Shown here piece after piece: positions 23,359-62,835 of a DNA stretch of 64,000 nucleotides. The notes under the pieces are model-generated. The model saw nothing but the letters and a program-made list of their open reading frames with translations. It searched no databases and was not told where the DNA came from. Position 1 is the first letter of the stretch. The number at the start of each line of letters is the position of its first letter. Made by a program: the position numbers and the translations under genes. This DNA comes from a virus, in IMG/VR virus record IMGVR_UViG_3300031251_000005, positions 1 through 64,000 of that record; one strand, given 5' to 3'.

Positions 23359-23393
23359 ATTGATACTACTAGCATTACGCTAGTAGTATCAAT
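23359..23393 (+). terminator. Terminator hairpin, near-identical to 62688-62722
   Basis: attgatactactagc-attac-gctagtagtatcaat. Confidence 0.8.
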
Positions 23394-23401
23394 ATTACCC
23401 C

Positions 23402-23507
23402 TATTTTTTAAAGATTCTAATTTTTTGAAGATATATATTATTGTTGTAGTATTAGAATAGTATTGCATTATTCTAATCTTTTTAAATTAAATAGGAGTAA
23501 GAACATG
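23402..23507 (+). repeat. Leader repeat copy 1 (promoter + hairpin + RBS)
   Basis: tattttttaaagattctaattttttgaagatatatattattgttgtagtattagaatagtattgcattattctaatctttttaaattaaataggagtaagaacATG. Confidence 0.9.
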
Positions 23508-24356
23508 AAGAAAGAAGTAAATCCAAACGTATTCAATGAAATCTTGTCAGTGTTAACTAAAAACGGCCATCTGTTTCCACAGATTGGATCACGGTACTTT
23601 GGGTATGATCATGAGCTCTCGGATTACGATTTTATGACTACCCATAATGAGATGAAAAGTGGTCTAGTCACCACTTTTACTAGTATTAAAAATTTAAGTG
23701 GGGGTGCAGAGTATTCTAGTGATCAGTCCCTTCAGGGGACTCTGTATGAAATCATTGATACCGACGGACGCAAGATTCAAATATTAGCCTTCGACACGGA
23801 GGCGGATTGTCTTACCCAAATCCGTAGGAACAGGGAACTAAAGGGGTTCTTATTAAACAATGCAGATATACTACCTTATATAGCGCAGCAAAAAAGGAAG
23901 TATCATTCAGAGGAAAGTAACGGCAGTATATTTTTCAATGAAATGTTAGAATTTATAAAATTTGAACACATGGACAGATGGCAATTTACTGAATGGAGTG
24001 ATAGTTATCGCTCCATACAAGAGGCAAAAGGTAGAAAATGGGTGGCGAATATGATGCTACCTATATTTTCTATGGTTATGTCATCAGCATGTACTCCCAC
24101 TTTATTACCACCAAAGGTAAGAGTATTAACTATTAAGGCTGATGATTGTTTTGGTTTAGATGAGCAACTAATTATAAATGACCAACCATCCACAGTGGTT
24201 GGAGATGGGGTGTCTTATCAGTGGGTAAAAAACCACCACTTATTAGTAAAAGTATTTCAGAATGGTCAGCTTTCTGAAACATATCTATGTGATGTTGAAA
24301 ACAACCTCAAATATAAGTTAGCACCTGTCCAACCTACAGAGTTGATAGTTAGTTGA
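23505..24356 (+). CDS. Pol-beta-superfamily nucleotidyltransferase-like protein, paralog A
   Basis: IGSRYFG...SDYDF fits the hG[S]x(9-13)DxD motif. True start is the ATG behind TAGGAG; the ORF-track extension is the leader repeat. Confidence 0.65.
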   Translation: MKKEVNPNVFNEILSVLTKNGHLFPQIGSRYFGYDHELSDYDFMTTHNEMKSGLVTTFTSIKNLSGGAEYSSDQSLQGTLYEIIDTDGRKIQILAFDTEADCLTQIRRNRELKGFLLNNADILPYIAQQKRKYHSEESNGSIFFNEMLEFIKFEHMDRWQFTEWSDSYRSIQEAKGRKWVANMMLPIFSMVMSSACTPTLLPPKVRVLTIKADDCFGLDEQLIINDQPSTVVGDGVSYQWVKNHHLLVKVFQNGQLSETYLCDVENNLKYKLAPVQPTELIVS

Positions 24357-24364
24357 TAAAGCAG

Positions 24365-24396
24365 GTAGATGGATACGCATATGCGTATCCATCTAC
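24365..24396 (+). terminator. Perfect 32-bp palindrome terminator (duplicated at 25331-25362)
   Basis: gtagatggatacgcat|atgcgtatccatctac followed by a T-rich tail. Confidence 0.85.
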
Positions 24397-24410
24397 TATT
24401 TATTATCTTT

Positions 24411-24516
24411 TATTTTTTAAAGATTTGAATTTTTTGAAGATATATATTATTGTTGTAGTATTAGAATAGTATTGCATTATTCTAATCTTTTTAAATTAAA
24501 TAGGAGTAAGAACATG
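24411..24516 (+). repeat. Leader repeat copy 2
   Basis: Near-identical to 23402-23507. Confidence 0.9.
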
Positions 24517-25323
24517 AAGAAAGAAGTAAATCCAACAGAGTTTAATGAAATATTGGCTGTGTTAACGAAACACTGCCACGTATATTTAGAGATTGGCTCA
24601 AGGTACTTTGGGTACAATCACGATCTGTCGGACTATGATTTCATGACTTCCCAGAATGGGATAAAATGTGGTTTAGTAACCACGTTTACGAGCATTAAAG
24701 ACTTGTCGGGGGGGGCAGAGTATTCTAGTGATCAGTCCCTTCAGGGGACTTTGTATGAAATTGTTGCCACCGATGGCAGAAAGATTCAAATCTTGGCATT
24801 TGATAGGGATGAAGACTTGCATACCCAAGTCCGTAGGAACCGAGAGTTAAAGGGGTTTCTCTTAAACAATGAGTTTCTCTTACCTTATATAGCTAATCAA
24901 AAAAGGATGTTTAATTCGGAAAAAGGAAATGGATCAATATTTTTCAACGAAATACTGGAGTGGATACAGTTAGAACCCATGGACGGATGGCAATTTACTG
25001 TATGGTGTAATAACTATTACTCCATACAAGAGGCAAAAGGTAGAAAATGGGTGACTCGAATGATGTTACCTATATTTTCTATGGCCTCTGCCCAATCATC
25101 TAAACCAAAGGTAAGAGTATCATCTATTGGTTTTGATGAGCGACTAATAATCAATGACCAACCAACCACTATCCATGGTTCTGGGGTAGCTTATCATTGG
25201 GTAAAAAACCATCTGCTAGTAAAAGTAATTCTGAATGAGCGTTCTAAAACCTTTCTAGTTGATATTGAAAACAATATCAAATTTGATGCAGATTTTCACC
25301 ACACAGAGTTGATAGTTGAATAA
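24514..25323 (+). CDS. Pol-beta-superfamily nucleotidyltransferase-like protein, paralog B
   Basis: IGSRYFG...SDYDF; colinear with paralog A. Confidence 0.65.
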   Translation: MKKEVNPTEFNEILAVLTKHCHVYLEIGSRYFGYNHDLSDYDFMTSQNGIKCGLVTTFTSIKDLSGGAEYSSDQSLQGTLYEIVATDGRKIQILAFDRDEDLHTQVRRNRELKGFLLNNEFLLPYIANQKRMFNSEKGNGSIFFNEILEWIQLEPMDGWQFTVWCNNYYSIQEAKGRKWVTRMMLPIFSMASAQSSKPKVRVSSIGFDERLIINDQPTTIHGSGVAYHWVKNHLLVKVILNERSKTFLVDIENNIKFDADFHHTELIVE

Positions 25324-25330
25324 ATAGTAG

Positions 25331-25362
25331 GTAGATGGATACGCATATGCGTATCCATCTAC
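25331..25362 (+). terminator. Perfect 32-bp palindrome terminator
   Basis: Identical to 24365-24396, including the downstream tail. Confidence 0.85.
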
Positions 25363-25383
25363 TATTTATTATCTTTTATTTTT

Positions 25384-25420
25384 TCAAATTATTTTAATAC
25401 ATATATTATTTACTAGCTAT
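25384..25420 (+). promoter_or_regulatory. Putative early promoter for the gp122-like/RNAP operon
   Basis: tcaaattattttaatacatatattatttactagctat; shares ATATATTATT and ACTAGCTAT with the site at 17064. Confidence 0.5.
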
Positions 25421-25486
25421 TCCCTTTGATCCATTAATTAACTAAGATACAAGTCTTAGAAATAACCGTAACCTAACCTTTCCAAA

Positions 25487-26599
25487 ATGAGTAATGATAA
25501 TGTTTTAAATAATGCTAAACTAATTAATACCGATAAGATACTGGTCGGTGATAAATGTGCAGTATCTAATAACTATGCTAATTCTTTATCAACAAAATTA
25601 AAAATAGTTAATTTATCATCCCATCATTTAGTTGTATATTTTCGAGATGGATGTATTGCTGAATTACCTCCTTTAGAGGGTGGTCCATATCCTGATACAG
25701 TAATCATTGGTCATGCTAAACAAAATTCTTTAGGTAGAATAAACGCTATAGCTGGCATGGAGTGTGAAAAAACAAATACAATAAGAGTAGAGCTTGCTAA
25801 GAATAGAAATAAGCACCTTTACTATGAAGAAGTAATTGATGTTAATTCGATTATGAATAGTAGAAATGGGATATATGTTACGACTGCTGATATTATTATT
25901 ATAATGGCAGATAGGGTACAGAATATACCATTTCATCCATTTTGTACGCAGAGTATTCATAATTTATATCTTATTGCCACTGAGGGGTTTGATAGTACTA
26001 CAGATATAAATGTTGGTATTAGATTAATTAATAATGATGGATTACAATCTAGAGTATATATTATCTTTCATGATAGATTAATGGTGTTATGGCCTAAAAG
26101 ATCTACCACATTAAAAGATGGCTTATATATAACTGGGTTAACACATTTACACACTGAGGTAAGTAATGGTATTAGAAAAGATGAATATTTTACAATAGAA
26201 GAAGCATTAGATGGTAAGTGCCCTGTTAAAGTTTATTCAAATATAGTAGCTGCTAGAGATGCTTTAAATGCATCTAGAGTAGAGGAAGCTAAAGAGGTAA
26301 TATTATCAAGAGAACATGAAACTACAATAATAAACATGAAACGCCAAAAAGAAATATTGGAGAATGAAAATGTATTACTAAAAGCACAGCAAGTTAAAGA
26401 AAAAGAATTAGCAGCAGAGAGTGCTGCAAAAAGGGAAGCTGAAATAACAGCTGAGAAACATAGAATAGAAAAGGAGCTACTAATGTTAAAAGAAGAGGCT
26501 GCATTAAAAGCATTAGAACAAAAGAAGTGGACTGAAGCTGCTAAATTAGTTGGTACTGTCTGTGCAGTAGGTTTAACAATTTATAAAATACTAAAGTAA
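25487..26599 (+). CDS. Conserved hypothetical protein (phiKZ gp122-like)
   Basis: 370 aa; HPF motif, C-terminal coiled coil and hydrophobic tail; directly precedes the RNAP subunit gene. Confidence 0.6.
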   Translation: MSNDNVLNNAKLINTDKILVGDKCAVSNNYANSLSTKLKIVNLSSHHLVVYFRDGCIAELPPLEGGPYPDTVIIGHAKQNSLGRINAIAGMECEKTNTIRVELAKNRNKHLYYEEVIDVNSIMNSRNGIYVTTADIIIIMADRVQNIPFHPFCTQSIHNLYLIATEGFDSTTDINVGIRLINNDGLQSRVYIIFHDRLMVLWPKRSTTLKDGLYITGLTHLHTEVSNGIRKDEYFTIEEALDGKCPVKVYSNIVAARDALNASRVEEAKEVILSREHETTIINMKRQKEILENENVLLKAQQVKEKELAAESAAKREAEITAEKHRIEKELLMLKEEAALKALEQKKWTEAAKLVGTVCAVGLTIYKILK

Positions 26600-26654
26600 C
26601 TAATGATATACCTATTTGGTAACCATTATTTTAGTAATAGGAGGTATTAGTATC

Positions 26655-28241
26655 ATGATTGATACAAAATTGTTAAGCCTAGTCAGTAGCAAAATGCCCC
26701 AAATCAATAAGAAAGCCATGGAAGGTATAGCCATGTCTCAATTATCTGAAGTAGAAGAATATATTCATAATACTTTCAGATGTGCTGCAGAGAGTTTTCC
26801 ACCTGGTTTAAAATATATAGGTGGTAGAAGATGTACCCCTTTAGAACAATATAGAGAAATCATTAGGCCATTAAAACCAAAGAAAGCTTTTGAGATGTTA
26901 AGGTCAGATGTATATTTGATGAAATATCTTTTTACTTTTAATGGGATTGAATTAAGACCTTTCTATATATTCTTACCATTTGTTAGTGATGGTGGAATAA
27001 TGTTTCTCAAAGGCACGCAATATAAGGTAACACCAGTCTTAGGTGGTAAGGTATTTAATATTGAGCACAATAATATTTATATGCCTACCCCTAGAATGCG
27101 TATGGGGTTTAGTCAATATACAGTTAGTTGCATATTAAATGATAAGATAGTACATTCTAATTGTGTAGCTAGTTATTTATACAATATGAATAAAGTTGAT
27201 AGATCAGTTTTATATCCTACACTAATGCATTATATCTTAGCTAAGTATGGGTTACAAACCGCTTTATTAAAGTTATTTAATGTGCATATTACCGTTGGTA
27301 AGTATGAGTTAGATAAATTATCTCAACAAGGCTATAAGGTTTATCGTAGTAGACAGATTCCATATAGAAAAGTAATTTCTTATGAACCAAGTGAAGTAAG
27401 GATTGCTATTCCAGAAAATGAATATTATCCTCTATTGGATAATATCATTAGTACAGTTTTTTACATCATTGATAATTGTACAGATGCAACTAATGAAATT
27501 GAGGAATTAGAAAATCCTAAATTATGGTTACGTCTTTTGGATAGATTTATCTTTAAAGATCAAGGTACGGAAAAGAAAAGATTTGAAAAAATGGAGGAAC
27601 ATTTACAGAATACAGAAAATACCTATGATCCAGTGACTCGTAGGACATTAATGTCTGATTCAATTTTATGTAATGATATCTTTGAATTGTTTAGGTATAT
27701 ATGTTTAAACTATCAGGATATAGTAATTCATCATGATGTTGGCACAATGTATTATAAAGAATTAACTACTACTAAACATCTATTGTTTAATGTAGTATAT
27801 AATATATTTATAGCTATGTATGAATTACAGAAACTACCTGAGAATCTGTTAACTGTTGAAAAGATATCTAAAGTGTTAATAGATAATCTAAGAAAAGATA
27901 AAATCTTTTCCACATTAGGACATGGGGAATTAACATCAACTGGAATAGCTACTGATTGTAAATACTTTGGTGCTACTGGTAATATGATTTCTCATAGTAA
28001 GGCTACAGCAGTAGCTGGTAGTAAAAGATCTAAAAAGACTACTAATGATCCTGGATTATTATTACATGAATCTCAAGTAGAGGTAGCAACTTATGCTTGG
28101 ATTACTAACAGATGTCCACATGGAAGATCTAAGATTAACCCATTTATTAATTTTGGAGAGAAATTTCAGATATTACCATCCCCACAATTGGAACATACAC
28201 TAACTGGGCTTAGAGAGCTTTTAAGAAAGAATAAGCGTTAA
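26655..28241 (+). CDS. Non-virion RNA polymerase beta-type subunit (phiKZ gp123-like)
   Basis: FPPGLKYIG.RRCTP.E.Y, FLPFV..GG...L.G..Y...PV and C-terminal GRSKINPF motifs; AGGAGG RBS before ATG 26655. Confidence 0.8.
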   Translation: MIDTKLLSLVSSKMPQINKKAMEGIAMSQLSEVEEYIHNTFRCAAESFPPGLKYIGGRRCTPLEQYREIIRPLKPKKAFEMLRSDVYLMKYLFTFNGIELRPFYIFLPFVSDGGIMFLKGTQYKVTPVLGGKVFNIEHNNIYMPTPRMRMGFSQYTVSCILNDKIVHSNCVASYLYNMNKVDRSVLYPTLMHYILAKYGLQTALLKLFNVHITVGKYELDKLSQQGYKVYRSRQIPYRKVISYEPSEVRIAIPENEYYPLLDNIISTVFYIIDNCTDATNEIEELENPKLWLRLLDRFIFKDQGTEKKRFEKMEEHLQNTENTYDPVTRRTLMSDSILCNDIFELFRYICLNYQDIVIHHDVGTMYYKELTTTKHLLFNVVYNIFIAMYELQKLPENLLTVEKISKVLIDNLRKDKIFSTLGHGELTSTGIATDCKYFGATGNMISHSKATAVAGSKRSKKTTNDPGLLLHESQVEVATYAWITNRCPHGRSKINPFINFGEKFQILPSPQLEHTLTGLRELLRKNKR

Positions 28242-28370
28242 TTAATAATAGTAGCTACTATGTTAGCATAAATATGTTATCATGGCTTAAATAGCTTCTA
28301 TGTGCGTTTAATGATATGATTTATTACACCATATCAATAGATATAACTTTAATTTAAAATAGGAGAAGTA

Positions 28371-29918
28371 ATGTATACTCAGCAATATCAATATGCATCT
28401 CCCCCGATGGATATATGTCAACAGTATAGACCTTTTATAGATAATGTATTTGGGGCAGCAATTAATTCAATTTTACCAGTTGCTAGATTAGAACAAGGGT
28501 TAGCTAATTATGTTTATAACATTTTAGTTACAACAGGTTATGATTTAGTTCAGGATTTTTTATACTTTGAATTTAGTAATAAACAATTTCATGAAGGAAC
28601 TGCACAGAATACTATTGTTGCTACTATTGAATTTATAATTGCTAGAGAGATTTTTCAATATGGCATTCAAATCCCTGAATTTAATGAAGCAGTCAATTGG
28701 GTAAACAATAATATAGATCAAGTAATGAGGTTTGCTGGATCTAGAAATCAACCACAAATGCCACCTATTAATAACTTCCCAGTGAATAGAAATATATCTA
28801 ATTCATTCGGTGGTGGAAATGGTATGCCTGTGAATAATAACATGCGACCTAACAATATACCTTTAACATCAAATAATAGTAGTTTTTCATTTAATCAACC
28901 CACTAATGTAGTAAATAATCCTGTAACATTAGGTGGTGGCCTGGAGAGTATAGCAGTGAATAAAGCAAATCATCTTTTCCCAAATGCTGAAGCTCATGAT
29001 TTTAGAGCAGGGCAAGCTAGAACTACACCTAGTGTAACTCAGCCTCCTATAGTAAATCCCCCTGAAAAACCAAAACAGTCTGCTTTAAATATTACGGTTT
29101 ATGATATACGCGATAGAAATGCTATTGATAATTTAGATAATGCATCAAAAAGCGATAATCTTGAACATATTATTCTAGCAGATATTGCTATTCGTGCAAA
29201 TGATAGCATGAATCCATTTCTGTTAAATGTTGTTAAAGAAAAAATATTTCCAGTACCATTAAAATTATCTGAAGATTTTATCAATGCTATTGATAGAATA
29301 GAAGAAGCAGAAACAATATTCGATATCATTAGCATATTAAATGATTTAGAAGAAAATTATGACCTAGTTAAGTTTAGAGCTAACTTAAGTGCATTGATTA
29401 CCAATACAGCTTTAACAGCACTTAAGTATCGTTATGATATTAACAATATGAATGGTTTTCCATTTCTATCTAACCCAGATCTATGTATTAAATTTTTAAG
29501 GGAAAAAGGTATTCTAGAAGAAATAGAAACATTAGTGGTAAATAAAGTCAGACATATTTTTACTATGTATTCTTTTATTACTAGTAGTATTCCTGAATCT
29601 GATGATAAAAAGAATATTAAATTATTAAATACCTTTAAAGCTTTAAGTGAAGTAAAATTAATAGGTTGCTTATATGAAATACCTGTGGTAATTTTACCAT
29701 GGTTAACTGTATATCAATTTGCAAAGAAACAGTTAGCTATACATAATCTACAAGATGATTGTGCATTAGATGTGGCATATAATCAAACCTTTAAACTTTT
29801 AGATGAGGATGATCTATATTTTGATTTATATGATAATGCCTTAAATCATTATCGTGTTTACAGAATTGGTAAAAATACATTATCACCTTCTACCTTTACA
29901 GTTGAATATATAGAATAA
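28371..29918 (+). CDS. Hypothetical protein with N/P-rich linker
   Basis: 515-aa ORF, TAGGAG RBS. Confidence 0.65.
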   Translation: MYTQQYQYASPPMDICQQYRPFIDNVFGAAINSILPVARLEQGLANYVYNILVTTGYDLVQDFLYFEFSNKQFHEGTAQNTIVATIEFIIAREIFQYGIQIPEFNEAVNWVNNNIDQVMRFAGSRNQPQMPPINNFPVNRNISNSFGGGNGMPVNNNMRPNNIPLTSNNSSFSFNQPTNVVNNPVTLGGGLESIAVNKANHLFPNAEAHDFRAGQARTTPSVTQPPIVNPPEKPKQSALNITVYDIRDRNAIDNLDNASKSDNLEHIILADIAIRANDSMNPFLLNVVKEKIFPVPLKLSEDFINAIDRIEEAETIFDIISILNDLEENYDLVKFRANLSALITNTALTALKYRYDINNMNGFPFLSNPDLCIKFLREKGILEEIETLVVNKVRHIFTMYSFITSSIPESDDKKNIKLLNTFKALSEVKLIGCLYEIPVVILPWLTVYQFAKKQLAIHNLQDDCALDVAYNQTFKLLDEDDLYFDLYDNALNHYRVYRIGKNTLSPSTFTVEYIE

Positions 29919-29924
29919 TAAAAC

Positions 29925-29969
29925 GTAATAGATACAGATAACTCACAATGAGTTATCTGTATCTATTAC
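29925..29969. terminator. Bidirectional terminator between convergent genes
   Basis: gtaatagatacagataactca-caa-tgagttatctgtatctattac. Confidence 0.8.
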
Positions 29970-29971
29970 TA

Positions 29972-30304
29972 TCATTTTTCTTTTTTGTCTTTAGAAAATT
30001 TAGATAACTTAGCCAACATAGTCTGAGCTGTCTTTTTGTCTTTCCATTTTTTATAAAATAGATTAGTTACCTTATAAACATTATAAATATTATAGATAAC
30101 TACTAAAATAGCTGGAAAATGTTTTACTGTATAAATAATAAAAGAATCTATAACTAAATGAATATCATCTAATAGTGTAAGATTTTCAAATGCATCTTGT
30201 TTTATATGTAGTTCTTGAAATAGATCTATATATATACTAGCCTCTTTTATAAAAGTATTGACATCATTAGCATCAATCTTTTGTAAATATTCCATTAGAC
30301 TCAT
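29972..30304 (-). CDS. Hypothetical protein with one hydrophobic segment
   Basis: 110 aa, AGGTG RBS. Confidence 0.55.
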   Translation of the reverse strand: MSLMEYLQKIDANDVNTFIKEASIYIDLFQELHIKQDAFENLTLLDDIHLVIDSFIIYTVKHFPAILVVIYNIYNVYKVTNLFYKKWKDKKTAQTMLAKLSKFSKDKKEK

Positions 30305-30384
30305 TTATCACCTATTTATAGTTAGTTTTTAATATCAATTTCTGAACTACATATAGCGATACATCTATCTATCATGCTATTCAT

Positions 30385-30939
30385 TTAAGGGGTATTAAGT
30401 AAAATACATAGAGCTAATCCTGCAGCAATGGCATCTACTGTATGCTCATCAAAGGTTAAAGGGGATAAATACTCTTCATAAGATATATCTTTAAGTAATA
30501 AAGCATTTCTCATAAGTGACTTATCCCCACTAGTACCTTTAACTTTTAAAGCATTCTTAATAGTACTAGGATCAATAGTAGAAAAACTAGTAGAAGGGTT
30601 ATAATTAAATACTGTTGATCTAATTATACTAATTACTTCTACTAGTACTCCATAAGCTCCTGGTCTTAATCTATTATAAAAAGGGGATTCAGATATAACC
30701 ATATCTGGTTTATATAAATATAATAACTTTTCTATTTGTCTAGATATAGCAATTAATCTAGCATACTTATCACCATGGATAAATGCTACGTCTTTATAAT
30801 ATCTAGATAAATATTCAGCATCTATTGTTTCTGCATATATAACATGAGTTTTTTCTTCAGAATAATCTAGAATTGAGGTACCACACTTAGAACTACCTGG
30901 GTCTATACTAAGTACTCTCAATGTGGAATTATAAGTCAT
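30385..30939 (-). CDS. ruvC: RuvC-like Holliday junction resolvase
   Basis: VLSIDPGS, MVISESPF, DPSTIK and DEHTVDAIA catalytic motifs. Confidence 0.85.
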   Translation of the reverse strand: MTYNSTLRVLSIDPGSSKCGTSILDYSEEKTHVIYAETIDAEYLSRYYKDVAFIHGDKYARLIAISRQIEKLLYLYKPDMVISESPFYNRLRPGAYGVLVEVISIIRSTVFNYNPSTSFSTIDPSTIKNALKVKGTSGDKSLMRNALLLKDISYEEYLSPLTFDEHTVDAIAAGLALCILLNTP

Positions 30940-31778
30940 TAGGTAGCTACATATGGGCTAGAATTAGCCAATGAGAATTGCAAAGTAAGGGAGGATGGAT
31001 ATACTTGTAATTCTTGACTAGTAGCTGCATAAGCCATTACTTGTGCACATTGTAGATCTGTATAAACAGCTGAATTACCACCTAATGTGGTAGTGACTGT
31101 AACATCAAACCCACTAACCATCCCTACTTCAGAAATTGTAGCATATCTAATATCACCATACTTTGTTATACAAGCATCAATAATATTATTAATATCTACA
31201 GTGTTAAAATTAACAGGTAATATAGCTTGTGTAACAAAATGACTACCATTTGTTACATTAACTGTTGTATTACTAATATCAACTGGAGTTGGTGATAAAT
31301 TAATAGCTGATGGAATATAAGCTAAATCACTAGTCTGTGCTCCATTAGTAATAGTAATGATACGTCGATCTACACTAATACCTGTGGTTGGTAAAACCAT
31401 TAAGTAATAAGAATAATAATCAACTCCACCTATAGTTTCCAATATACGTAATCTAAATCTACTCCTTTCTGTAGGTTGTAAATCTGCAGTAGTAGGTACC
31501 ATGACAAACGGTATCTGTTCAAAGAAAGCCCCATCTGTTACATTATGTTGTAACATATCTACTAATGTATTATTACCAGAGCCTATTACATTAGTTTTAC
31601 CACCTCTACCTATTCCTATATAACCTATAGTAGGATAACCATCAGAAGGTGGATTAACATTACCTACATTAAATTTTTCATTTAATGTACTATATTGATC
31701 TGGTACAAATGGAAGATTTAAAGATCTTTGAATTTCCATTAGAGTAAAGTTTTTTGATTTTACAGCATTAATACTCAT
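30939..31778 (-). CDS. Virion structural protein (phiKZ gp127-like)
   Basis: STLNEKF, YIGIGRGG, IPFV and ISEVGMVSG motifs; synteny. Confidence 0.65.
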   Translation of the reverse strand: MSINAVKSKNFTLMEIQRSLNLPFVPDQYSTLNEKFNVGNVNPPSDGYPTIGYIGIGRGGKTNVIGSGNNTLVDMLQHNVTDGAFFEQIPFVMVPTTADLQPTERSRFRLRILETIGGVDYYSYYLMVLPTTGISVDRRIITITNGAQTSDLAYIPSAINLSPTPVDISNTTVNVTNGSHFVTQAILPVNFNTVDINNIIDACITKYGDIRYATISEVGMVSGFDVTVTTTLGGNSAVYTDLQCAQVMAYAATSQELQVYPSSLTLQFSLANSSPYVAT

Positions 31779-31824
31779 ATTACTTGTTCCTAAAAAATAA
31801 TGATAGATATAAAATAATGTTCTT

Positions 31825-33981
31825 TTATATTAATTTAAGAAATGCGCCTGCTTCAATTCGATATTCATCGTTACAAATAACACCACAACCTATATCTAAA
31901 CCTATATTTAAAGATCTAGTAATAATATCCATATAAGTGTTAGTAATATCAATAGAGCTATTAACAATAACTGGTATTCTAATATTACTCACTATACTAA
32001 GATTATCATTAACATCTAGACCGTGAGAAGTTTCTATTGGGGACAATACAGTGGCACCTTCCTTACTATTTACTATACTAAATTCCCAAGGAATAGGTTC
32101 TATGTCATTAGTAGGTGCGCCATTTACAAATTGTACCATATAACTACATAGAGTACGAAGAATACCCATCATTTCTATATATGGACTTTGTAATGTGCTT
32201 GTATTAGGTGAAATACCAATAAACACTTTAGCTAAAGTAGTAGCTATAGATATAAATGTAGTATCAGAGAAATAACTCACATCTACTTCTAATCTATGAA
32301 AGAAATCAGTATAAGTTGTTTCTTCTACAAAACTACAAGGTATATTTTGATAGAATAAATTAACTAAAGATTGTAACTCTGATCTACCTATAGGATTTTG
32401 TTCTAATGTAGGTAATAATCTATGTTGTACTTTATTACTTACTATTTGATCTATATAAATATTAAATTGATCTAAAGTAATCATATCATGCGGATATGTT
32501 TGTGCGCTTAATAAATCTTGAAATCTATTCCATGTAACTAATGGATTAGTATTTAATATTGAACCAGATACAAACCTAGATTCAATTATAGCTAATATCT
32601 CTTGATCAGTTAACTGTGGATGTACCATTATATCCCTAACTACTGGTGTAGGAATATCTATTAGTTTATTACCAGTATAAGCGGAAGCAGCATACATTAA
32701 GAATACAGCAGCATCAGCTGCAGATAAAGTTATATCAGGTATACCCTCAGATGGTAATTTCAATATATACTTATATCTAATCTTATTTTGATTAGTACTG
32801 GCTAAATATAACCAATTGTGTATTTGTTCAGAAACCCGACTAACTAAAGCAATAGTAGTATTTTGTATTATGCTACCTTCAATCACATTAGTTGGTATGT
32901 CAGTGGATGGTGTATGTAACAAAGCTTCTTCTAATTTTAAAACATCTATATCTATGTTTTGTGGATTTAAAGAAGCCTGTGATTCTAATTTATCTACTAA
33001 ATCTGGTATAGTAAAGAATTTAGTAGTATCTGTTACTTGAGTAGGCGTATTATAAGGGTACCTATTTACTTTTACTTCATTACCTAAATTCTTATAATCT
33101 TTATTATCTAAAGTTTTTAATGATTGCCCAATGTCTTGCCTTATATCATATTTATATAATTGTAAGCCAAATGGAAAAGCAAAGTTATCATTAAGAAAAT
33201 CTAATGTAGAAGATAAACCAGCATTAGCTACAATATACTCTATATTTCTATATAGAAAATAAGCTTGTTCATAAGGTATAACATTTTTATAAGAACCTAA
33301 ATCAAAATAGTTAGATAAATAATTCCATAAATGAAATTCATGTACTTGTGGTGTTTTACAATTATTTAATCTAATATTAATAATAACAGGTATTAAATTT
33401 TGATATAGTATACCTAAAAAAGCAGCTGTATATAAATTATCTGTAACAGCATATGCAACTACATCCCATCTAGTAGTATAATTAGTAATCCATTTTTGAA
33501 TATCACTAATTAATCTAGTTTCACCTGCACCAATAAAAGAAGGATCATAATCTAGTAAGATATAGTTATCAGCATCTATTGCTGTTTGTATATCTACTGG
33601 AGATAATACACCACGAATTAACATATCCTGGTTTGGATATTGAGTTATTAAATTATTATAAGAAGTACCATATGTTAATAGATCAGTTAATGTAATAGGG
33701 TGTTGTATAATTATATCTGGTAAGAAGTTTATTAACTCATTAGTATCTAATGAGTAAACTTGTATATTAGGATCATTTAAATATCCTGTAGTACCCACAT
33801 ATGGTAAGCCAGCTATATTCCTATAATATTTCCAGTCAGCAGGATTTATAGATAACTCATCTCCACCTGCTGCTAAATATGAATTAATAGTGTTTATCGT
33901 TTGTGTAGATTTAATTACAAAACTCCTTACAAGTTTTATTATATCTGAAACGTAAGCGTAATATGTATCACTTATGAGCAT
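31825..33981 (-). CDS. Virion structural protein, probable baseplate (phiKZ gp128-like)
   Basis: WKYYRNIAG, IRLNNCKT.QVH.FH and FLYRNI motifs. Confidence 0.7.
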   Translation of the reverse strand: MLISDTYYAYVSDIIKLVRSFVIKSTQTINTINSYLAAGGDELSINPADWKYYRNIAGLPYVGTTGYLNDPNIQVYSLDTNELINFLPDIIIQHPITLTDLLTYGTSYNNLITQYPNQDMLIRGVLSPVDIQTAIDADNYILLDYDPSFIGAGETRLISDIQKWITNYTTRWDVVAYAVTDNLYTAAFLGILYQNLIPVIINIRLNNCKTPQVHEFHLWNYLSNYFDLGSYKNVIPYEQAYFLYRNIEYIVANAGLSSTLDFLNDNFAFPFGLQLYKYDIRQDIGQSLKTLDNKDYKNLGNEVKVNRYPYNTPTQVTDTTKFFTIPDLVDKLESQASLNPQNIDIDVLKLEEALLHTPSTDIPTNVIEGSIIQNTTIALVSRVSEQIHNWLYLASTNQNKIRYKYILKLPSEGIPDITLSAADAAVFLMYAASAYTGNKLIDIPTPVVRDIMVHPQLTDQEILAIIESRFVSGSILNTNPLVTWNRFQDLLSAQTYPHDMITLDQFNIYIDQIVSNKVQHRLLPTLEQNPIGRSELQSLVNLFYQNIPCSFVEETTYTDFFHRLEVDVSYFSDTTFISIATTLAKVFIGISPNTSTLQSPYIEMMGILRTLCSYMVQFVNGAPTNDIEPIPWEFSIVNSKEGATVLSPIETSHGLDVNDNLSIVSNIRIPVIVNSSIDITNTYMDIITRSLNIGLDIGCGVICNDEYRIEAGAFLKLI

Positions 33982-34052
33982 AATGCTTCCTCTAAAAATA
34001 TTATAGTTCTATATAATATTTTAATCGATTTATTTTTTAAAGAGACTTTAGT

Positions 34053-36596
34053 ATGGCTAAAAAAGATGAAAATAAAAAACCAGTTGAAGATGATATCTCT
34101 ACCACTGAGAAAGTATGGAGAGTACCTAAGACTGATTTAGTAGCACCTACTAATAAAAAGAAATACACTAGCAATCTAGATATTGATTTTAGTAGATTAA
34201 AACGTATAGTACTAGACCACTCTGATAGACTGGATGATGCAGCTGGTATTATGGAAACTTTACCAGATCTAGAAATAGTCAAAGAGACTCTAGTAGCTAG
34301 CATATTATCACCCAAAGATTTAAAAGAAGTAAAACTAAATATAACAATTAATAAAAATGCTCCACCAGAAATAGCTGAATTAGTAAGAGATCACTTTACA
34401 TCAGAATTTAATCTAGAGAGTAAATTATCTGTAATATTAGAGGAGTCTCTTTTTACTAAAGGCAGTTATATTTTAATGACATTACCACCTAATGCTATTA
34501 GAAAGATTATTGTTGAAAATACATATGGATTAGAATCAGCTAAGTATAATATAACTAATTTAGATATTGATAACTTTAGCTTGCCTAATATTGGTTTATT
34601 ACATTCTAATCTAGATAATGTAAACTATAGTTTAGAAAGTATCACTGATGAACGTAATTCTAAATTCTCTTTAGAAGGCGTAAACTGTAGTTTTACTAAA
34701 GGTGAAGATTTTAATGAATATAAAAAGTATGTAGAAATTAGTGATAATTGTTTACATTTAATCAGACCTGCAATTAAATCTTATAGTGGTAAGAAAAAAG
34801 TAAGTGATATATTAAAGAATGCTTTTGGTATGGAAGCAGTTCAAAATACTGTTAATGTTGAATCTATTTATTTAAGTAGATCAGCTACTACTATTCCTTT
34901 GCTAACTATGTCAGAAGATGTAGAAAAAGAAACTGAATTTAATCCAGTGGTTTTAACATTACCACAAGAATCAGTTATTCCAGTGCATGTTCCAGGTGAG
35001 CCTACTAATCATGTTGGTTATTATGTCTTTTTAGATGAGGATGGTAATCCAATTAGATATACTAGTACTAGTAATAAATTTAAAGAATTAAACACTAGAT
35101 TAAATAATACTATTAAAAATCAAACTTTAATGAATAATATTGGCTTAGGTGTAACCTATGCTAATAATTCAGTATCTAAAAACGCTAATGCTATTAATAA
35201 TAGACTTTTATTAGAGGCTTATTATAAAAAGTTTGAAAATGATTTAAAAGAAAAGATAGCTAAAGGTGGAACTGGGCAAACTGTAGAAATCAGTAACCCT
35301 GGTGAATTATATAGAATTATGTTTGCTAGGCAACTAGAAAAACAAAAAACTAAAGTTATCTATGTTCCTAAAGAAATGATTAGTTATATAGCGTTTAATT
35401 ACAATGAAACCGGCACTGGTATCTCATTGATTGAAAAGACTAAATTAATATCTTCTTTTAGGGCTGTATTAATGTTTGCTACTTTAATGGCTCATGTTAA
35501 AAGTTCAGTAAATCTAAGAACTCTTAGTATTACTTTAGATCAAGATGATCCAGATCCAACAGCTACGGTAGAATCTATATTAAATGAAACAGTAGCCTTA
35601 AGTGCATCTGGTATGCCTTTAGGTAGAACAAATCCATTAGATATAGTAGACTCGTTACAAAAGTCTGGATTACAGATTAAAGTAGATGGTGGTACCAGAT
35701 ACCCTAATACTAACATTGATTTAGCAGAAACTAAAAGAAACATTACTCCCCCTTCTTTAGATTTATCTGATATGTTAAGAGATATGCATTATTCAGCTCT
35801 ATGGGTAAATCCTGAAACTATTACTAGATCTGCAGATATTGATTTTGCTTCTACTCTTACATCAATAAATTTATTACAAGCTAAACGTATTACTGAAGTG
35901 CAAACTAAATACACAGCAGCTCTAAGCGGTGTAATAAAGAACTATATCTATATGGGTGGACCTTTATACACTACAATTAAAGAAAAATATAATTCTGCTA
36001 AAAGCTCTTTAACTTTAGAAGAAGTAATTGACAGTATAGCTGTTACATTACCTAAACAAGACAATGCAGTTATTTTAACACAAGCTAAAGAATATGCAGA
36101 TTATTGTACATTTATAGAAACCGCTGTGGACTCTTATATATCAGATGGTATGATTAAAGATTTATTAACTGGTGAATATATTGGTTTAAGCATAGATGAT
36201 GTTAGAAATACTATTTTAGATAAATTAAAACGTGATTGGTTACGTGGTCAAAATATGTTACCTGAATTAGATACTATTATTATTAATGAAGATAATAATG
36301 CTACTAAAAATTTAGAATTACATAATGACAATGTAATTAAATTCATCAGCGAAATCTTAAGGCACGTTAAAAAAACTGAACATGATGAAGATGAAAAAAC
36401 TAAAGAAGAAATAGATAAGTTAAATCCTCCACCACCTGAAGAAGAAACTACAGATGTAGATAACCCATCTCCAAAAGAAGGTGAGGAAAATACAGATATA
36501 TCTGAAGATAACAATGAAAATGATCTAGATAAAGACTTAGATAATCCTGATGAGTCAGATAAACCAAAGGATGATGATAAGGATACCAAAAAGTAA
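34053..36596 (+). CDS. Portal protein (phiKZ gp129-like)
   Basis: 847 aa; SILSPKD and ESVIPVHVPGEP.NHVGYYVFLDE.GNP motifs; acidic C-terminal tail. Confidence 0.75.
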   Translation: MAKKDENKKPVEDDISTTEKVWRVPKTDLVAPTNKKKYTSNLDIDFSRLKRIVLDHSDRLDDAAGIMETLPDLEIVKETLVASILSPKDLKEVKLNITINKNAPPEIAELVRDHFTSEFNLESKLSVILEESLFTKGSYILMTLPPNAIRKIIVENTYGLESAKYNITNLDIDNFSLPNIGLLHSNLDNVNYSLESITDERNSKFSLEGVNCSFTKGEDFNEYKKYVEISDNCLHLIRPAIKSYSGKKKVSDILKNAFGMEAVQNTVNVESIYLSRSATTIPLLTMSEDVEKETEFNPVVLTLPQESVIPVHVPGEPTNHVGYYVFLDEDGNPIRYTSTSNKFKELNTRLNNTIKNQTLMNNIGLGVTYANNSVSKNANAINNRLLLEAYYKKFENDLKEKIAKGGTGQTVEISNPGELYRIMFARQLEKQKTKVIYVPKEMISYIAFNYNETGTGISLIEKTKLISSFRAVLMFATLMAHVKSSVNLRTLSITLDQDDPDPTATVESILNETVALSASGMPLGRTNPLDIVDSLQKSGLQIKVDGGTRYPNTNIDLAETKRNITPPSLDLSDMLRDMHYSALWVNPETITRSADIDFASTLTSINLLQAKRITEVQTKYTAALSGVIKNYIYMGGPLYTTIKEKYNSAKSSLTLEEVIDSIAVTLPKQDNAVILTQAKEYADYCTFIETAVDSYISDGMIKDLLTGEYIGLSIDDVRNTILDKLKRDWLRGQNMLPELDTIIINEDNNATKNLELHNDNVIKFISEILRHVKKTEHDEDEKTKEEIDKLNPPPPEEETTDVDNPSPKEGEENTDISEDNNENDLDKDLDNPDESDKPKDDDKDTKK

Positions 36597-36610
36597 GTAA
36601 ACAAGGAAAT

Positions 36611-36640
36611 ATATACTAGGTGCATTTGCACCTAGTATAT
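36611..36640 (+). terminator. Hairpin after the portal gene
   Basis: atatactaggtgca-tt-tgcacctagtatat. Confidence 0.75.
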
Positions 36641-36644
36641 GACC

Positions 36645-36750
36645 TATTTTTTAAAGATTCTAATTTTTTGAATATATATATAATAGAAATGGTATTAGAA
36701 TAGTATTGCATTATTCTAATCTTTTTAAATTAAATAGGAGTATTAAAATG
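36645..36750 (+). repeat. Leader repeat copy 3
   Basis: tattttttaaagattctaattttttgaatatatatataatagaaatggtattagaatagtattgcattattctaatctttttaaattaaataggagtattaaaATG. Confidence 0.9.
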
Positions 36751-37086
36751 AGTATCGTAGAAATTAATGAAGTACAAATGTCAGAATTAAACCTTGCATT
36801 AGAAGGTAAAGCATTTGCAAAAAAATGCCGGAGCCAACTAATGGAAGGCCGGGCCATCATTGGAAACGGGGGTGTTACTGGTTGTATAGAAGTACATCTT
36901 TGTGAAAGTAGTCATGGTGCTGTCGAGTGGCATGTATGTATCATGCCAGAAAGAAAACCTGAAGATCTTGCCAGAGGCAAACACTCTTACCCTGGTAGAC
37001 TAGAAATCAACCATGTGTCTACATTTACAGACTGGGACCCAATGGTGAAATTTGTTAAGGATACCGTTATATCTGACTATATCTAA
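36748..37086 (+). CDS. Hypothetical accessory protein (112 aa)
   Basis: Starts MSIVEINE behind the leader RBS; GC-richer than the core genes. Confidence 0.7.
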   Translation: MSIVEINEVQMSELNLALEGKAFAKKCRSQLMEGRAIIGNGGVTGCIEVHLCESSHGAVEWHVCIMPERKPEDLARGKHSYPGRLEINHVSTFTDWDPMVKFVKDTVISDYI

Positions 37087-37095
37087 ACCGAACAC

Positions 37096-37125
37096 CATTA
37101 TGGATGTCAAATGACATCCATAATG
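37096..37125. terminator. Hairpin terminator
   Basis: cattatggatgtca-aa-tgacatccataatg with a downstream T run. Confidence 0.75.
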
Positions 37126-37148
37126 CCCATCTTTAATTGTTTTTTTTT

Positions 37149-37329
37149 TCAATTGTAAACAGTTAACACTCTACTAACATAATTAGCTGTTTGAATTGAT
37201 CGTTGTCCAATAATAGTTGGTAAACATCGCATCATAGATTCATATAGGTTTGATTGGCATTTATTAACAGCACGCTGTATATTGCCTTGTCCAGCATTAT
37301 AACTCGCTAATAGCATTTTTGTTTTATTA
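37149..37329 (-). pseudogene. 3' remnant of a second lytic transglycosylase gene
   Basis: Minus frame reads NKTKMLLASYNAGQGNIQRAVNKCQSNLYESMMRCLPTIIGQRSIQTANYVSRVLTVYN*, aligning with the C-terminus of ORF 37501-38154; the catalytic ES motif is absent. Confidence 0.8.
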
Positions 37330-37417: not shown

Positions 37418-37463
37418 GATAATTCAGATAATTTAGATATACCTAAATAATAATTAGCATAGG

Positions 37464-37497: not shown

Positions 37498-37500
37498 TAT

Positions 37501-38154: not shown

Positions 38155-38184
38155 AATAGACCTTAAATATTAAATTAAACATAA

Positions 38185-53660: not shown

Positions 53661-53696
53661 ATAGATACTATAGGCACTAGTGCCTATAGTATCTAT
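53661..53696. terminator. Perfect 36-bp palindrome
   Basis: atagatactataggcact|agtgcctatagtatctat. Confidence 0.8.
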
Positions 53697-61281: not shown

Positions 61282-61292
61282 GGTATTATATA

Positions 61293-61451
61293 ATGACTGA
61301 AATAGAAGTAAGAGAAGAAATAGAGGAAGATGTACCACCATCTAAACTCCATGAGAAATTATCTATCATAGAAGCTAGTGGTGGAACTCATGAAGTATCT
61401 TTACAAATCAATGGTAATTATACAATTACCGCTACTTATTCAATATCTTAA
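61293..61451 (+). CDS. Small acidic protein (52 aa, not in ORF track)
   Basis: GAGGT RBS; MTEIEVREEIEEDVPPSKLHEKLS...; fills the gap in the operon. Confidence 0.5.
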   Translation: MTEIEVREEIEEDVPPSKLHEKLSIIEASGGTHEVSLQINGNYTITATYSIS

Positions 61452-61456
61452 TAATT

Positions 61457-61678
61457 ATGGAAAATAAAGGTCAATCAATAAAATATAGTTTTCTAGAATC
61501 ATTTACTAATACTATACTTGGGTATATTATAGGGGTAATGGTACAAATGTGGATATTTCCTTTATATGGTGTTAATATATCAGTTTTTGATAATATGTTT
61601 ATAGTAGCCGTGTTTACAACTATATCTTTTATTAGGACATATCTTTTACGTAGATTTTTTAATTTACTTTCAAAATAA
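61457..61678 (+). CDS. Small two-TM phage membrane protein
   Basis: SFLES.TN...GY...FP..G...N......FT.IS..R.Y..RR.FN pattern. Confidence 0.7.
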   Translation: MENKGQSIKYSFLESFTNTILGYIIGVMVQMWIFPLYGVNISVFDNMFIVAVFTTISFIRTYLLRRFFNLLSK

Positions 61679-61696
61679 CATTTCATAGGTAATTGC

Positions 61697-62548
61697 ATGC
61701 AACAATATTTAAATTTATTAGAAGACATTTTAACTAATGGAGAGATAGTTAGTAATAGAACTGGGATTAATACAATTCGGGTTGAAGGAAGGATGTTAGA
61801 GTTTGATATGAATAAAGGGTTTCCTTTATTAACTATTAATAAAGTTTATTATAAAAAAGCTTTTGCAGAAATGTTGTGTTTTATGAAAGGCCCTACTGAT
61901 GCAGCTAAACTACGATTAGCTGGTTGTAATTGGTGGGATAAGAATGCTAATGAAAATAAACAATGGTTAGCTAATCCTAATAGAAAGGGCATAGATGATC
62001 TAGGTAGAGTATATGGTGCACAATGGCGAGATTATAGAGCACCAGATGGTAGAATAATTGATCAATTAAAAATAGCAGTAGAGACTATTATTAAAGATCC
62101 TGATAGTAGACGAATTATTGTTGAAACATGGAACCCTGGTGAGTTAGATAGAATGGCACTACCACCTTGTCATAAATCCTATCAATTTATTTGTAATAAA
62201 TTAACCAATGAGTTATCTCTTATAGTAGATATTCGTTCATCAGATGTAATTTTAGGGCTATCTACTAACATAGCTATGTATGCTCTATTACTTAAGATAG
62301 TTTGTTATGCAACTGCTTATAAATCAAAGAAATTAATATTTTCTTTAAAAGACACACATATTTATGAAAATCACTTAGAAGGAGTAAGAGAGTTATTAAC
62401 TAGAACTCCAACCGAATTACCCAAACTACAAATTCATATGGGTCAAGAGTATCATGGAATGAAAGTAATAGATAAAATAAAAACCACAGATATTAAGGTT
62501 TTAGATTATAAAGCACAAAAACATTTAAATTTTGAAATGGCTGTCTAA
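61697..62548 (+). CDS. thyA: Thymidylate synthase
   Basis: MQQYL, NRTG, GFPLL, LGRVYGAQWR, DSRR, MALPPCH, RSSD and DTHIYENH motifs. Confidence 0.92.
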   Translation: MQQYLNLLEDILTNGEIVSNRTGINTIRVEGRMLEFDMNKGFPLLTINKVYYKKAFAEMLCFMKGPTDAAKLRLAGCNWWDKNANENKQWLANPNRKGIDDLGRVYGAQWRDYRAPDGRIIDQLKIAVETIIKDPDSRRIIVETWNPGELDRMALPPCHKSYQFICNKLTNELSLIVDIRSSDVILGLSTNIAMYALLLKIVCYATAYKSKKLIFSLKDTHIYENHLEGVRELLTRTPTELPKLQIHMGQEYHGMKVIDKIKTTDIKVLDYKAQKHLNFEMAV

Positions 62549-62687
62549 ATATAGAGTTATATTTTATGAGAGAATTTTTATATAAACTATTTATTTGGTT
62601 CATAGTTATCAATGTAGCTTTAGGTGAACTAGTATATGAGAGATATCAAGATATAATAAAGTTTATTAAAAAATAATAATATATGAG

Positions 62688-62722
62688 ATTGATACTACTA
62701 GCATTGCGCTAGTAGTATCAAT
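62688..62722 (+). terminator. Terminator hairpin near-identical to 23359-23393
   Basis: attgatactactagc-attgc-gctagtagtatcaat followed by attaccc. Confidence 0.8.
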
Positions 62723-62730
62723 ATTACCCA

Positions 62731-62835
62731 TATTTTTAAAGATTAGAATTATTTGAATATATATATAATAGAAATGGTATTAGAATAGTATTGCATTATT
62801 CTAATCTTTTTAAATTAAATAGGAGTAAGAACATG
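62731..62835 (+). repeat. Leader repeat copy 4
   Basis: tatttttaaagattagaattatttgaatatatatataatagaaatggtattagaatagtattgcattattctaatctttttaaattaaataggagtaagaacATG. Confidence 0.9.

Follow-up and report, generated by a model that had tools for sequence, protein, structure and literature searches.

A repeated promoter-hairpin leader in a phiKZ-like phage: a probable early expression cassette and candidate vehicle of gene gain

Introduction

The promoter early stem-loops (PeSLs) of T4-like phages are described as repeated intergenic composites made up of a sigma-70-like early promoter, a stem-loop terminator, a Shine-Dalgarno (SD) sequence and a start codon (PMC2839356). In the account of Arbiol et al. 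2010 (PMC2839356) they lie mostly before ORFans, bound differences between close relatives and form mini-circles; they are also treated in Comeau et al. 2014 (PMC4122927). Here we analyse a repeated leader of about 105 nt in IMG/VR virus record IMGVR_UViG_3300031251_000005. The window, that is the whole stretch of DNA analysed, is the first 64 kb of this 87,976-bp record, and positions above 64,000 belong to the same record, outside the window. An original prediction, made from the letters, had taken four mosaic copies of this promoter-hairpin-ribosome-binding leader for a system of gene-cassette capture and shuffling. Judged by promoter consensus and context, a role as expression leader is well supported, and a role as vehicle of gene gain and exchange appears plausible.

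The systems that bear on such a leader in jumbo phages are their early promoters and their moron-like genes. A review states that every RNA polymerase (RNAP)-encoding jumbo phage has an AT-rich motif near −10 of its early genes, read by the virion polymerase (PMC7598289). In AR9 the mapped early consensus is AAATATATATTAT-(6N)-G+1 (PMC5312081), and phiKZ early promoters are described as an extended −10 with a T-rich motif upstream (PMC8244752). Moron-like single-gene units have been noted in phiKZ, with reference to Juhala et al. 2000 (PMC10914365). As the original prediction had supposed, no description of repeated promoter leaders in phiKZ-like phages was found in the articles searched. For PeSLs in jumbo phages it returned only a review citing the 2014 PeSL paper for a phage in a table, and the words stem-loop and hairpin are absent from the phiKZ differential RNA sequencing paper.

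Results

Leader copies and their mosaic composition

The 51-nt core of the leader occurs without mismatch at 23449, 24458, 36692 and 62777, always on the + strand, and had no match in 100 shuffles. Homology extends from about 23402, 24411, 36645 and 62731 to the ATG, in line with the four copies first proposed. The whole record, comparison with which had been suggested as a check, holds two further copies just past the window: a fifth exact core at 64299 and a diverged sixth copy at ~65336-65464, upstream of gene 65465. Every copy (five exact cores and the diverged one) ends at an ATG, and identity among leaders within the genome is about 91–100%. The copies of the window are:

23402..23448, + strand: leader 1, untranscribed part, with T-tract, upstream element GATTCTAAT and type I early-type promoter ATATATATTAT-TGTTGT; predicted start A23448 or G23449
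23449..23504, + strand: leader 1, predicted 5′ untranslated region (5′UTR), with the 51-nt core, hairpin 23451-23461/23467-23477 and U-tract; SD AGGAG at 23493-23497, 7 nt before ATG 23505
24411..24513, + strand: leader 2, core 24458-24508, hairpin 24460-24486; differs from leader 1 at 2 of 103 nt
36645..36747, + strand: leader 3, type II promoter ATATATATAAT-AGAAAT-G36691, core 36692-36742, hairpin 36694-36720
62731..62832, + strand: leader 4, upstream element GATTAGAAT, type II promoter, predicted start G62776, core 62777-62827, hairpin 62779-62805

Leader 3 carries ttaaa in place of agaac ahead of its ATG. The sixth copy has the upstream hairpin of copies 1 and 4 and the promoter in common with the other leaders, then a different small hairpin, and gene 66023 is preceded by a bare ribosome-binding module, AAATAGGAGTAAGAACATGAA, which corresponds to the last 21 nt of the leader only.

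The mosaic pattern claimed for the variable parts proved exact on alignment. A 22-nt promoter block exists in one version in copies 1 and 2 and in another in copies 3 and 4; gattctaatttttt is common to copies 1 and 3; copies 1 and 4 have the upstream hairpin in common, with identical arms and one different loop base. In the homologous part, the four-gamete condition holds between alignment column 71 (which unites copies 1 and 3) and the promoter block (copies 1 and 2 against copies 3, 4 and 5). It holds at the level of modules too, terminator T1 (listed below) being found with both promoter types.

An ATTnnAAT element is present upstream of the promoter at 23412-23419, 24421-24428, 36655-36662 and 62742-62749. 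Its middle is CT in copies 1 and 3, as in the 3′ arm of the leader hairpin, AG in copies 4 and 5, as in the 5′ arm, TG in copy 2 and CG in the sixth copy. The element could be an extra operator half-site, or could be due to chance, the copies not being independent.

A hairpin at the 5′ end of the predicted transcript

Folding bore out the 11-bp stem with one G-U pair that had been read in the core; the hairpin has a 5-nt loop, with −7.7 kcal/mol and a z-score of −3.46 for a 35-nt piece. From the hairpin at about +3 the 5′UTR continues with CUUUUU and an A/U-rich spacer to AGGAG, 7 nt before the ATG. We then compared the 40 nt folded from each predicted start. A hairpin starting at +1 to +3 was observed in all three multi-copy leader families, that of the window and families A and B of the relative described below (z −3.0, −3.0 and −2.2), and a weaker one in the diverged sixth copy (z −0.7). 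None of six single-copy early-type 5′ ends had a z below −1, and four were essentially unstructured. Thus, the 5′ hairpin is a trait of the repeated leaders in two genomes; its sequence differs between the two.

The leader promoter resembles AR9 early promoters

A recurrent promoter motif was read from the 130 nt upstream of 50 open reading frames (ORFs): (A/T)A(C/T)ATATATTA(T/C), then 6 nt, then G, or A then G. The same motif is found ahead of at least seven other genes (17162, 25487, 59019, 66443, 77080, 80877 and 65465). In the leaders it takes the form ATATATATAAT-AGAAAT-G in copies 3–5 and ATATATATTAT-TGTTGT-A/G in copies 1–2. The AT-rich motif with its 6-nt spacing to a purine fits all five exact copies, the sixth copy and at least seven single-copy sites. 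In the leaders, motif and spacing place the predicted start 0–1 nt before the invariant core, and the core therefore makes up almost the entire predicted 5′UTR.

We could confirm the AR9 consensus on the 34 annotated promoters of that phage (KU878088). One of the single-copy early-type sites of the record heads the operon of a homolog of a non-virion RNA polymerase (nvRNAP) subunit, and AR9 nvRNAP subunit genes are likewise located downstream of early promoters. From these similarities we infer that the leader promoter belongs to the class read by the virion-packaged phage RNA polymerase (AR9 type). One of the single-copy sites is:

After 25331..25362, + strand: single-copy early-type promoter of core gene 25487, ACATATATTAT-TTACTA-G25416

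The record has 30% G+C and a CheckV completeness of 31%, and its sequence is present in six rhizosphere metagenome DNA runs; no RNA run was listed among those that contain it, which has no bearing on expression. The major capsid gene (21185-23350, 721 aa) matches Pfam PhiKZ_MCP (E 2e-130). The protein encoded at 26655-28241 matches PHIKZ123, a chain of the solved phiKZ nvRNAP (E 5e-37), and also resembles annotated nvRNAP beta subunits of many phiKZ-like phages (25–28% identity). On the strength of these matches we take the phage to be a phiKZ-like jumbo phage that encodes a phiKZ-type multisubunit RNA polymerase. The record also carries the gene of a UvsX-like recombinase (69433-70899).

Terminator-like hairpins flank the leaders and their genes

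According to the original prediction each leader follows a terminator hairpin and each gene behind it is closed by another; such hairpins were located for all four copies.

23359..23393, + strand: hairpin T1, terminator-like, after the major capsid gene; 15-bp arms and 5-nt loop; arms recur at 62688-62722 and before the sixth copy
24365..24396, + strand: palindrome T2, perfect, terminator-like; closes gene c1 and is also the upstream hairpin of leader 2
25331..25362, + strand: second copy of T2, after gene c2
36611..36640, + strand: terminator-like hairpin after the gene of an 847-aa virion protein, upstream of leader 3
37096..37125, + strand: hairpin closing the c3 unit
62688..62722, + strand: second copy of T1, downstream of thymidylate synthase, upstream of leader 4
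63590..63621, + strand: perfect palindrome closing the c4 unit

These palindromes lie 8–25 nt upstream of each leader, while the conserved leader hairpin itself lies after the predicted start. T2 is repeated together with its tail, 24363-24418 and 25329-25384 being identical at 56 of 56 nt. The presumed intergenic terminators of the phage are perfect palindromes of 14–16 bp with 5–7 G-C pairs.

Self-BLAST revealed about 30 perfect or near-perfect palindromes of 24–45 nt at gene boundaries of the record (for example 24365-24396, 38185-38216, 40003-40034, 53661-53696 and 63590-63621), and the relative has a similar set. They are probably the terminators of this phage.

The genes behind the leaders are mostly ORFans with atypical codon composition

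The genes carried behind the leaders of the window, most of them ORFans, are given below with their G+C content at third codon positions (GC3).

23505..24356, + strand: cargo c1, 283 aa, ORFan, GC3 0.345; its sole homolog among 5.8 billion proteins is c2
24514..25323, + strand: cargo c2, 269 aa, paralog of c1, GC3 0.381; no homolog besides c1 among 5.8 billion proteins
36748..37086, + strand: cargo c3, 112 aa, ORFan, GC3 0.31
62833..63576, + strand: cargo c4, 247 aa, GC3 0.355

The gene behind copy 5 encodes a Nudix hydrolase. In c4, the N-terminal 130 aa form a Cys-rich domain that belongs to phrog_8344, a family widespread among phages and of unknown function (192 clusters at E<=0.001). No Pfam match was obtained for c1–c4 and no PHROGs match for c2 and c3; c1 has one weak match, phrog_13563 (unknown function, E 1e-4). 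Among nine further proteins compared with Pfam and PHROGs, eight gave nothing convincing, the exception being the Nudix protein; the only PHROG match of protein 63606 is weak and to a family without assigned function (E 0.004). Atlas leads for c1 and c3 all score below 0.9. For c1 and c2 there are weak Atlas leads to nucleotidyltransferase-fold proteins (score 0.8, template-modelling score about 0.4), and the AlphaFold model of c1, built from its sequence alone, is of too low quality to bear on the fold (predicted local distance difference test score 43.5). Read by eye, c1 and c2 (23505-25323) contain a G-S...D-x-D stretch.

The claim that the accessory genes are GC-richer held, c1–c4 having a GC3 of 0.31–0.38 against a genome mean of 0.169 (sd 0.064). 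GC3 and synteny were counted over 91 ORFs minus 23340-23468(−) (42 aa, overlapping leader 1) and 68345-68488(−) (47 aa), with the end-cut gene 3-2774 outside both counts. The seven leader-unit genes take GC3 ranks 1–6 and 14 of 89 (Mann-Whitney p 1e-5); the first genes after single-copy early-type promoters have ranks 11 to 48.

A distant relative carries its own leader family and different cargo

Close relatives were searched for in several ways, the window's own record and very near ones being possibly excluded from the collections. Megablast of 23300-26600 against GenBank phages gave no match, the best capsid protein identity among GenBank phages was at most 34%, and a capsid protein search of IMG/VR found no close relative. 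The pattern of the leader hairpin had 0 matches in IMG/VR and 0 in JGI metagenomes. Alignments of the capsid protein (IMG/VR, GTDB genomes, JGI metagenomes) and of the polymerase subunit (IMG/VR) returned one relative lineage or nothing. A protein search showed that the same capsid protein occurs on a contig of 151,831 bp, and it also listed relatives at 58–62% identity. The single relative lineage reached is represented by a 220-kb IMG/VR record (G001) with about 50% protein identity and conserved gene order; by tblastn, 50 of 89 ORFs have a match in it, typically at 35–60% identity (range about 22–68%).

In the relative, tblastn detected no homolog of any of the seven leader-unit genes, nor of the whole 62833-68269 block. 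There, the capsid gene is directly succeeded by a terminator and an early-type promoter, behind which stands the ortholog of gene 25487. Since the capsid gene adjoins the next core gene there, the c1 and c2 units are extra in the lineage of the window, or were lost in the other.

Self-comparison of the relative revealed dispersed repeats of 100–120 bp. Read along the coding strand, they are put together like the leader of the window, from a terminator palindrome, GGATTCAAA-A/T tract, ATGTATATATTAT-TTTAAT-G, a hairpin from +1, a small second hairpin, AGGAG and ATG. There are three copies of a type A leader, 97–100% alike, and three of a type B, and one terminator occurs with a leader of each type. 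Beyond the promoter, this family cannot be aligned to that of the window. Four of the leaders precede sizeable cargo, unrelated ORFans of 151–168 aa with GC3 of 0.38–0.54 against 0.242 (sd 0.056) for 137 long ORFs; behind the other two are ORFs of only 9 and 28 aa. One leader, at the junction that corresponds to copy 3 of the window, is located about 1 kb beyond the ortholog of the 847-aa gene, past a further terminator. A second occupies the interval from the thyA ortholog to the next core gene, where copies 4–6 lie in the record. The original prediction had asked whether cargo differs at orthologous sites: the relative has different cargo at two of the same junctions, and within the available 88 kb no cargo homolog was found between the genomes in either direction.

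Two further records belong to the lineage of the relative: G002 is 100% identical to G001 over 36,529 bp and G003 is 99.8–99.98% identical over the parts compared, neither with an indel at a leader. G003 (30,654 bp, IMG/VR class direct terminal repeats) was considered as an excised circle and rejected, as it is colinear with G001 159421-190073 and begins and ends in the repeat, being the stretch between two leader copies. AR9 has no leader family of about 100 nt: only 1 of its 241 repeat pairs (at least 30 nt) joins two annotated promoters, over 37 nt, and the 5′UTRs behind its 34 annotated promoters are unrelated.

Uniform leaders around diverged genes

Proteins c1 and c2 are 67% identical, with a synonymous divergence (dS) of 0.75, a nonsynonymous divergence (dN) of 0.18 and a dN/dS of 0.25. 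Both genes are thus old and subject to purifying selection. Between their leaders, however, only 2 of 103 nt differ, and between terminator and tail 0 of 56 nt. Had the flanks decayed neutrally, at the synonymous rate, dozens of differences would be expected in them, and selection on each base of the terminator tail is unlikely. With near-identical flanks around diverged paralogs, the flanks are younger than the genes that they surround. This is a sign of gene conversion, or of one paralog having been inserted between identical signals that were already there. Likewise, leader families that cannot be aligned between the genomes beyond the promoter and are uniform within each show concerted evolution.

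Copies 4 and 5 share 99% identity along 107 nt, a stretch that takes in the first 9 nt (three codons) of c4. In copy 5 these open a mini-ORF of 6 codons, MNWEKP*, whose stop overlaps the Nudix ATG as ATGA (record 64250-64375). Just upstream, an interrupted start (AGGAG..ATG) reads MSEFKD* into the leader. These mini-ORFs look like recombination scars, and the 9-aa ORF behind one leader of the relative is counted with them.

Recombinant junctions were searched for in contigs of runs X1–X4 on 19000-38500. Contig joints from 23403 to 36648 and from 36691 to 23449 were candidates and were rejected, being copies 4 and 5 aligned to copies 1 and 3. Loose contig ends match the sixth copy and gene 66023; one represents a leader variant absent from the 88-kb record, probably a further copy in the unsampled part of the genome. 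The contigs of three runs agree with the record on both flanks of the leader copies.

Other traces of rearrangement were observed nearby. Immediately downstream of the c3 unit, at 37149-37463 on the minus strand, 55 aa are left of a transglycosylase C-terminus; this remnant shares 49% identity with the C-terminal end encoded by the intact SLT gene at 37501-38154. The remnant continues into 88 bp (37330-37417) that exactly repeat a segment from inside the nvRNAP subunit gene (27227-27314), and contigs of run X1 break at both 88-bp copies. This region looks like a recent scar of illegitimate recombination. By self-BLAST, the first 38 nt of two genes (7161-7198 and 12141-12178) are 97% identical.

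Discussion

A probable expression cassette, proposed to be kept uniform by recombination

Taken together, we favour, with a probability of roughly 0.55, an immediate-early expression cassette that is kept uniform by recombination, forms insulated single-gene units and offers portable homology for gene gain in the manner of PeSLs. The cassette would consist, in order, of a palindromic terminator, a T-tract, the GATTnnAAT element, an early promoter of virion-polymerase type, and an invariant 5′UTR with hairpin, U-rich spacer and AGGAG. It would turn the gene behind it into an insulated, immediately expressed unit between core genes, and the most likely role of the hairpin is to protect leader mRNAs at their 5′ end or to mark that end. 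Homologous recombination (gene conversion or copy-and-paste), for which the phage encodes a UvsX-like recombinase, may keep the copies near-identical, unlike their cargo, which is unrelated and compositionally foreign. The shared leaders ahead of the genes and the shared terminators behind them could then serve as portable homology by which genes are inserted, duplicated or swapped, ready for expression. Hairpin function, and recombination as cause of both uniformity and gene gain, are thus proposals of ours. Gene gain and exchange are made plausible, indirectly, by four independent lines: the uniform flanks around diverged paralogs, the mosaic modules, foreign-looking cargo in two genomes and the scars.

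Several points weigh against this reading. No recombinant junction or circle was seen in the run contigs, all joints being other leader copies. The search for leader junctions and circles that the original prediction called for thus led back to copies 4–6, and to one ambiguous hybrid: a 271-nt contig of X2 (depth 2.2) that joins c1 to c2 at a shared 34-mer and may be a chimera of a low-coverage graph. The identity tracts end near coding boundaries, which also fits strong selection on regulatory sequence. Absence of cargo from the relative is not specific to leader genes, since 39 of 89 ORFs have no match there, and at the distance of the relative an exchange of cassettes would look no different from ordinary turnover of genes. 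The leader set was widened to the sixth copy and gene 66023 after the data had been seen; the five exact copies by themselves give GC3 ranks 2, 3, 4, 5 and 14 of 89, the Nudix gene behind copy 5 having an ordinary GC3 of 0.217. High GC3 could also reflect codon selection in very early, highly expressed genes and not foreign origin. Promoter class, timing and start site are all predictions from a single source, the match to the consensus. Finally, with the record 31% complete, leader copy number and cargo list are partial. Of the gene-capture proposal as first made, the terminator-promoter-hairpin-RBS composite, the accessory genes, the mosaicism and the phiKZ-like setting stood, with the absence of the cargo from the relative in its favour; the recombinant junctions that were looked for did not appear.

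Alternative explanations

The leader might be a regulon element only, a strong early promoter with its 5′UTR duplicated a few times, identical by selection and with no part in gene gain or exchange. Each base would then be needed for recognition by a sequence-specific phage factor, whether this binds the hairpin in the RNA or the palindrome as an operator in the DNA. We hold this to be tentatively possible. What does not vary is the predicted transcript between +1 and the SD, whereas the promoter has two forms; the stop of identity near coding boundaries and the lack of junction reads agree with it, and the upstream element, ATTCTAAT or ATTAGAAT, equals one hairpin arm in four of six copies, like extra operator half-sites. 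Left unexplained are a terminator tail and spacer identical at 56 of 56 nt beside paralogs with a dS of 0.75, leader-unit genes that are GC3 outliers in two genomes, the mini-ORF scars and the concerted change of the whole family between the genomes. The CUUUUU directly after the hairpin could instead suggest a promoter-proximal terminator or attenuator that releases an RNA of about 35 nt and gates read-through into the cargo. For phiKZ and five other Pseudomonas phages, 42 termination sites within 5′UTRs are reported, mostly yielding a short RNA or a long read-through (PMC10914365). Such a function is unlikely for this leader as judged by its weak, AU-rich stem (−7.7 kcal/mol), so different from the 14–16-bp perfect palindromes with 5–7 G-C pairs between the genes of this phage, and by the absence of a U-tract after the 5′ hairpins of the relative.

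A host sigma-70/sigma-A promoter, which would make the leader a true PeSL, can be traced by eye: a −35-like hexamer (TTCTAA, TTAGAA or TTTGAA) lies 16–17 nt upstream of a −10 TATTAT or TATAAT, with the predicted start 6–7 nt after it. We find it quite improbable all the same. A consensus scan (at least 9 of 12 matches) over copies 1–3 flagged none of them and turned up promoter-like sites less often than in shuffled sequence. Over 11–13 nt, including the 6-nt spacing to G, the motif agrees with the virion-polymerase consensus of AR9, phiKZ-type polymerase genes are present, and such phages use the virion RNAP for early genes according to the review (PMC7598289). As to an autonomous mobile element (miniature transposon or homing element) or an assembly artefact, near-identical dispersed copies at which contigs break would be expected of both. 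Terminal inverted repeats, target duplications and adjacent nuclease or transposase genes are lacking, all copies have the same orientation and are fused to a start codon, the contigs of three runs match the record on both sides of the copies and another assembly has an independent leader family, which renders either origin extremely improbable.

A further-reaching scheme is conceivable, though we consider it distinctly unlikely: a phiKZ-like soil phage clade in which each lineage has one universal leader, a virion-polymerase promoter joined to a 5′-terminal hairpin tag, as platform of gene capture and expression. There, the hairpin would be an address label by which a phage factor picks out immediate-early mRNAs to be protected, translated or handled at a stage when the phage does not yet have its own compartment and second polymerase. 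Co-infecting phages would swap foreign genes in and out by UvsX-type recombination over leader and terminator homology, a function like that of integrons achieved without integrase, and the whole leader family would evolve in concert with its reader.

Significance

How phiKZ-type jumbo phages with their own polymerases acquire and wire genes is little understood. If the leader is the uniform, portable cassette that we favour, a ready-made early leader on foreign-looking ORFans, found independently in two divergent genomes, suggests a general route of gene entry, by which accessory genes (often for host takeover or anti-defence) could enter conserved cores without disturbing late operons. With promoter, 5′ hairpin and ribosome site in ~105 nt, the leader is also a compact candidate expression part for genes from such phages. 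In metagenomic data, leader repeats break assemblies and can yield false terminal-repeat (complete genome) calls, as for G003.

Comparison with known systems

In integrons, promoterless or foreign genes gain expression at a common platform, and arrays of unrelated ORFan cassettes are formed. The leader differs in that no integrase and no attC-like site were seen at it, the promoter is repeated per gene and not placed once at the platform, and exchange would use general homologous recombination. Like morons, c1–c4 each form a one-gene unit that has a promoter and a terminator to itself and an atypical GC3, and the genes flanking c1 and c2 are adjacent in the relative. Morons have no common leader, are mainly described for prophages and are expressed from the prophage. 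The moron-like units of phiKZ were picked by their opposite strand, and the passages of PMC10914365 that concern them describe no shared leader. The premature terminators and small RNAs in 5′UTRs of phiKZ and Pseudomonas phages are also structured elements right after a phage promoter; as presented in the relevant part of that article, they are not reported as a repeated identical sequence (PMC10914365).

The early promoters read by the AR9 virion RNAP are alike in their AT-rich motif of ~11–13 nt near −10, the G start 6 nt downstream, the T-rich stretch upstream and their presence upstream of nvRNAP subunit operons. The leader copies have the AT-rich motif near −10 and a purine start, in a phage with a phiKZ-type polymerase. 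AR9 promoters precede unrelated 5′UTRs, with one pair sharing 37 nt, whereas the leader promoter is welded to an invariant multi-copy 5′UTR.

The PeSL analogy drawn in the original prediction stands for layout and genomic behaviour, for the end in SD and ATG, found in all copies, and for the preference for ORFans, all seven leader-unit genes being without homolog in the syntenic relative; it fails for the promoter, and the conserved hairpin lies after the predicted start. Both systems are repeated intergenic composites in which a stem-loop (a terminator in PeSLs, terminator-like here) is combined with an early promoter that is AT-rich in its upstream part, an SD and a start codon. Both are found chiefly ahead of ORFans in variable positions, a few copies lying within conserved modules for the virion or for replication, and both are proposed as homology source for modular exchange. 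In contrast to PeSLs, the leader has a promoter of the AR9 virion-polymerase class, not sigma-70-like in copies 1–3 as scanned, and the hairpin that is conserved best in it follows the start site and is predicted to be transcribed. It has 5–6 copies in 88 kb against about 50 per genome, and these are far more alike (91–100%). Exchange between close relatives and mini-circles are reported for PeSLs, and the leader is known from sequence comparison. With PeSLs in T4-like phages and the leader in a phiKZ-like one, we see their relation as one of functional analogy only.

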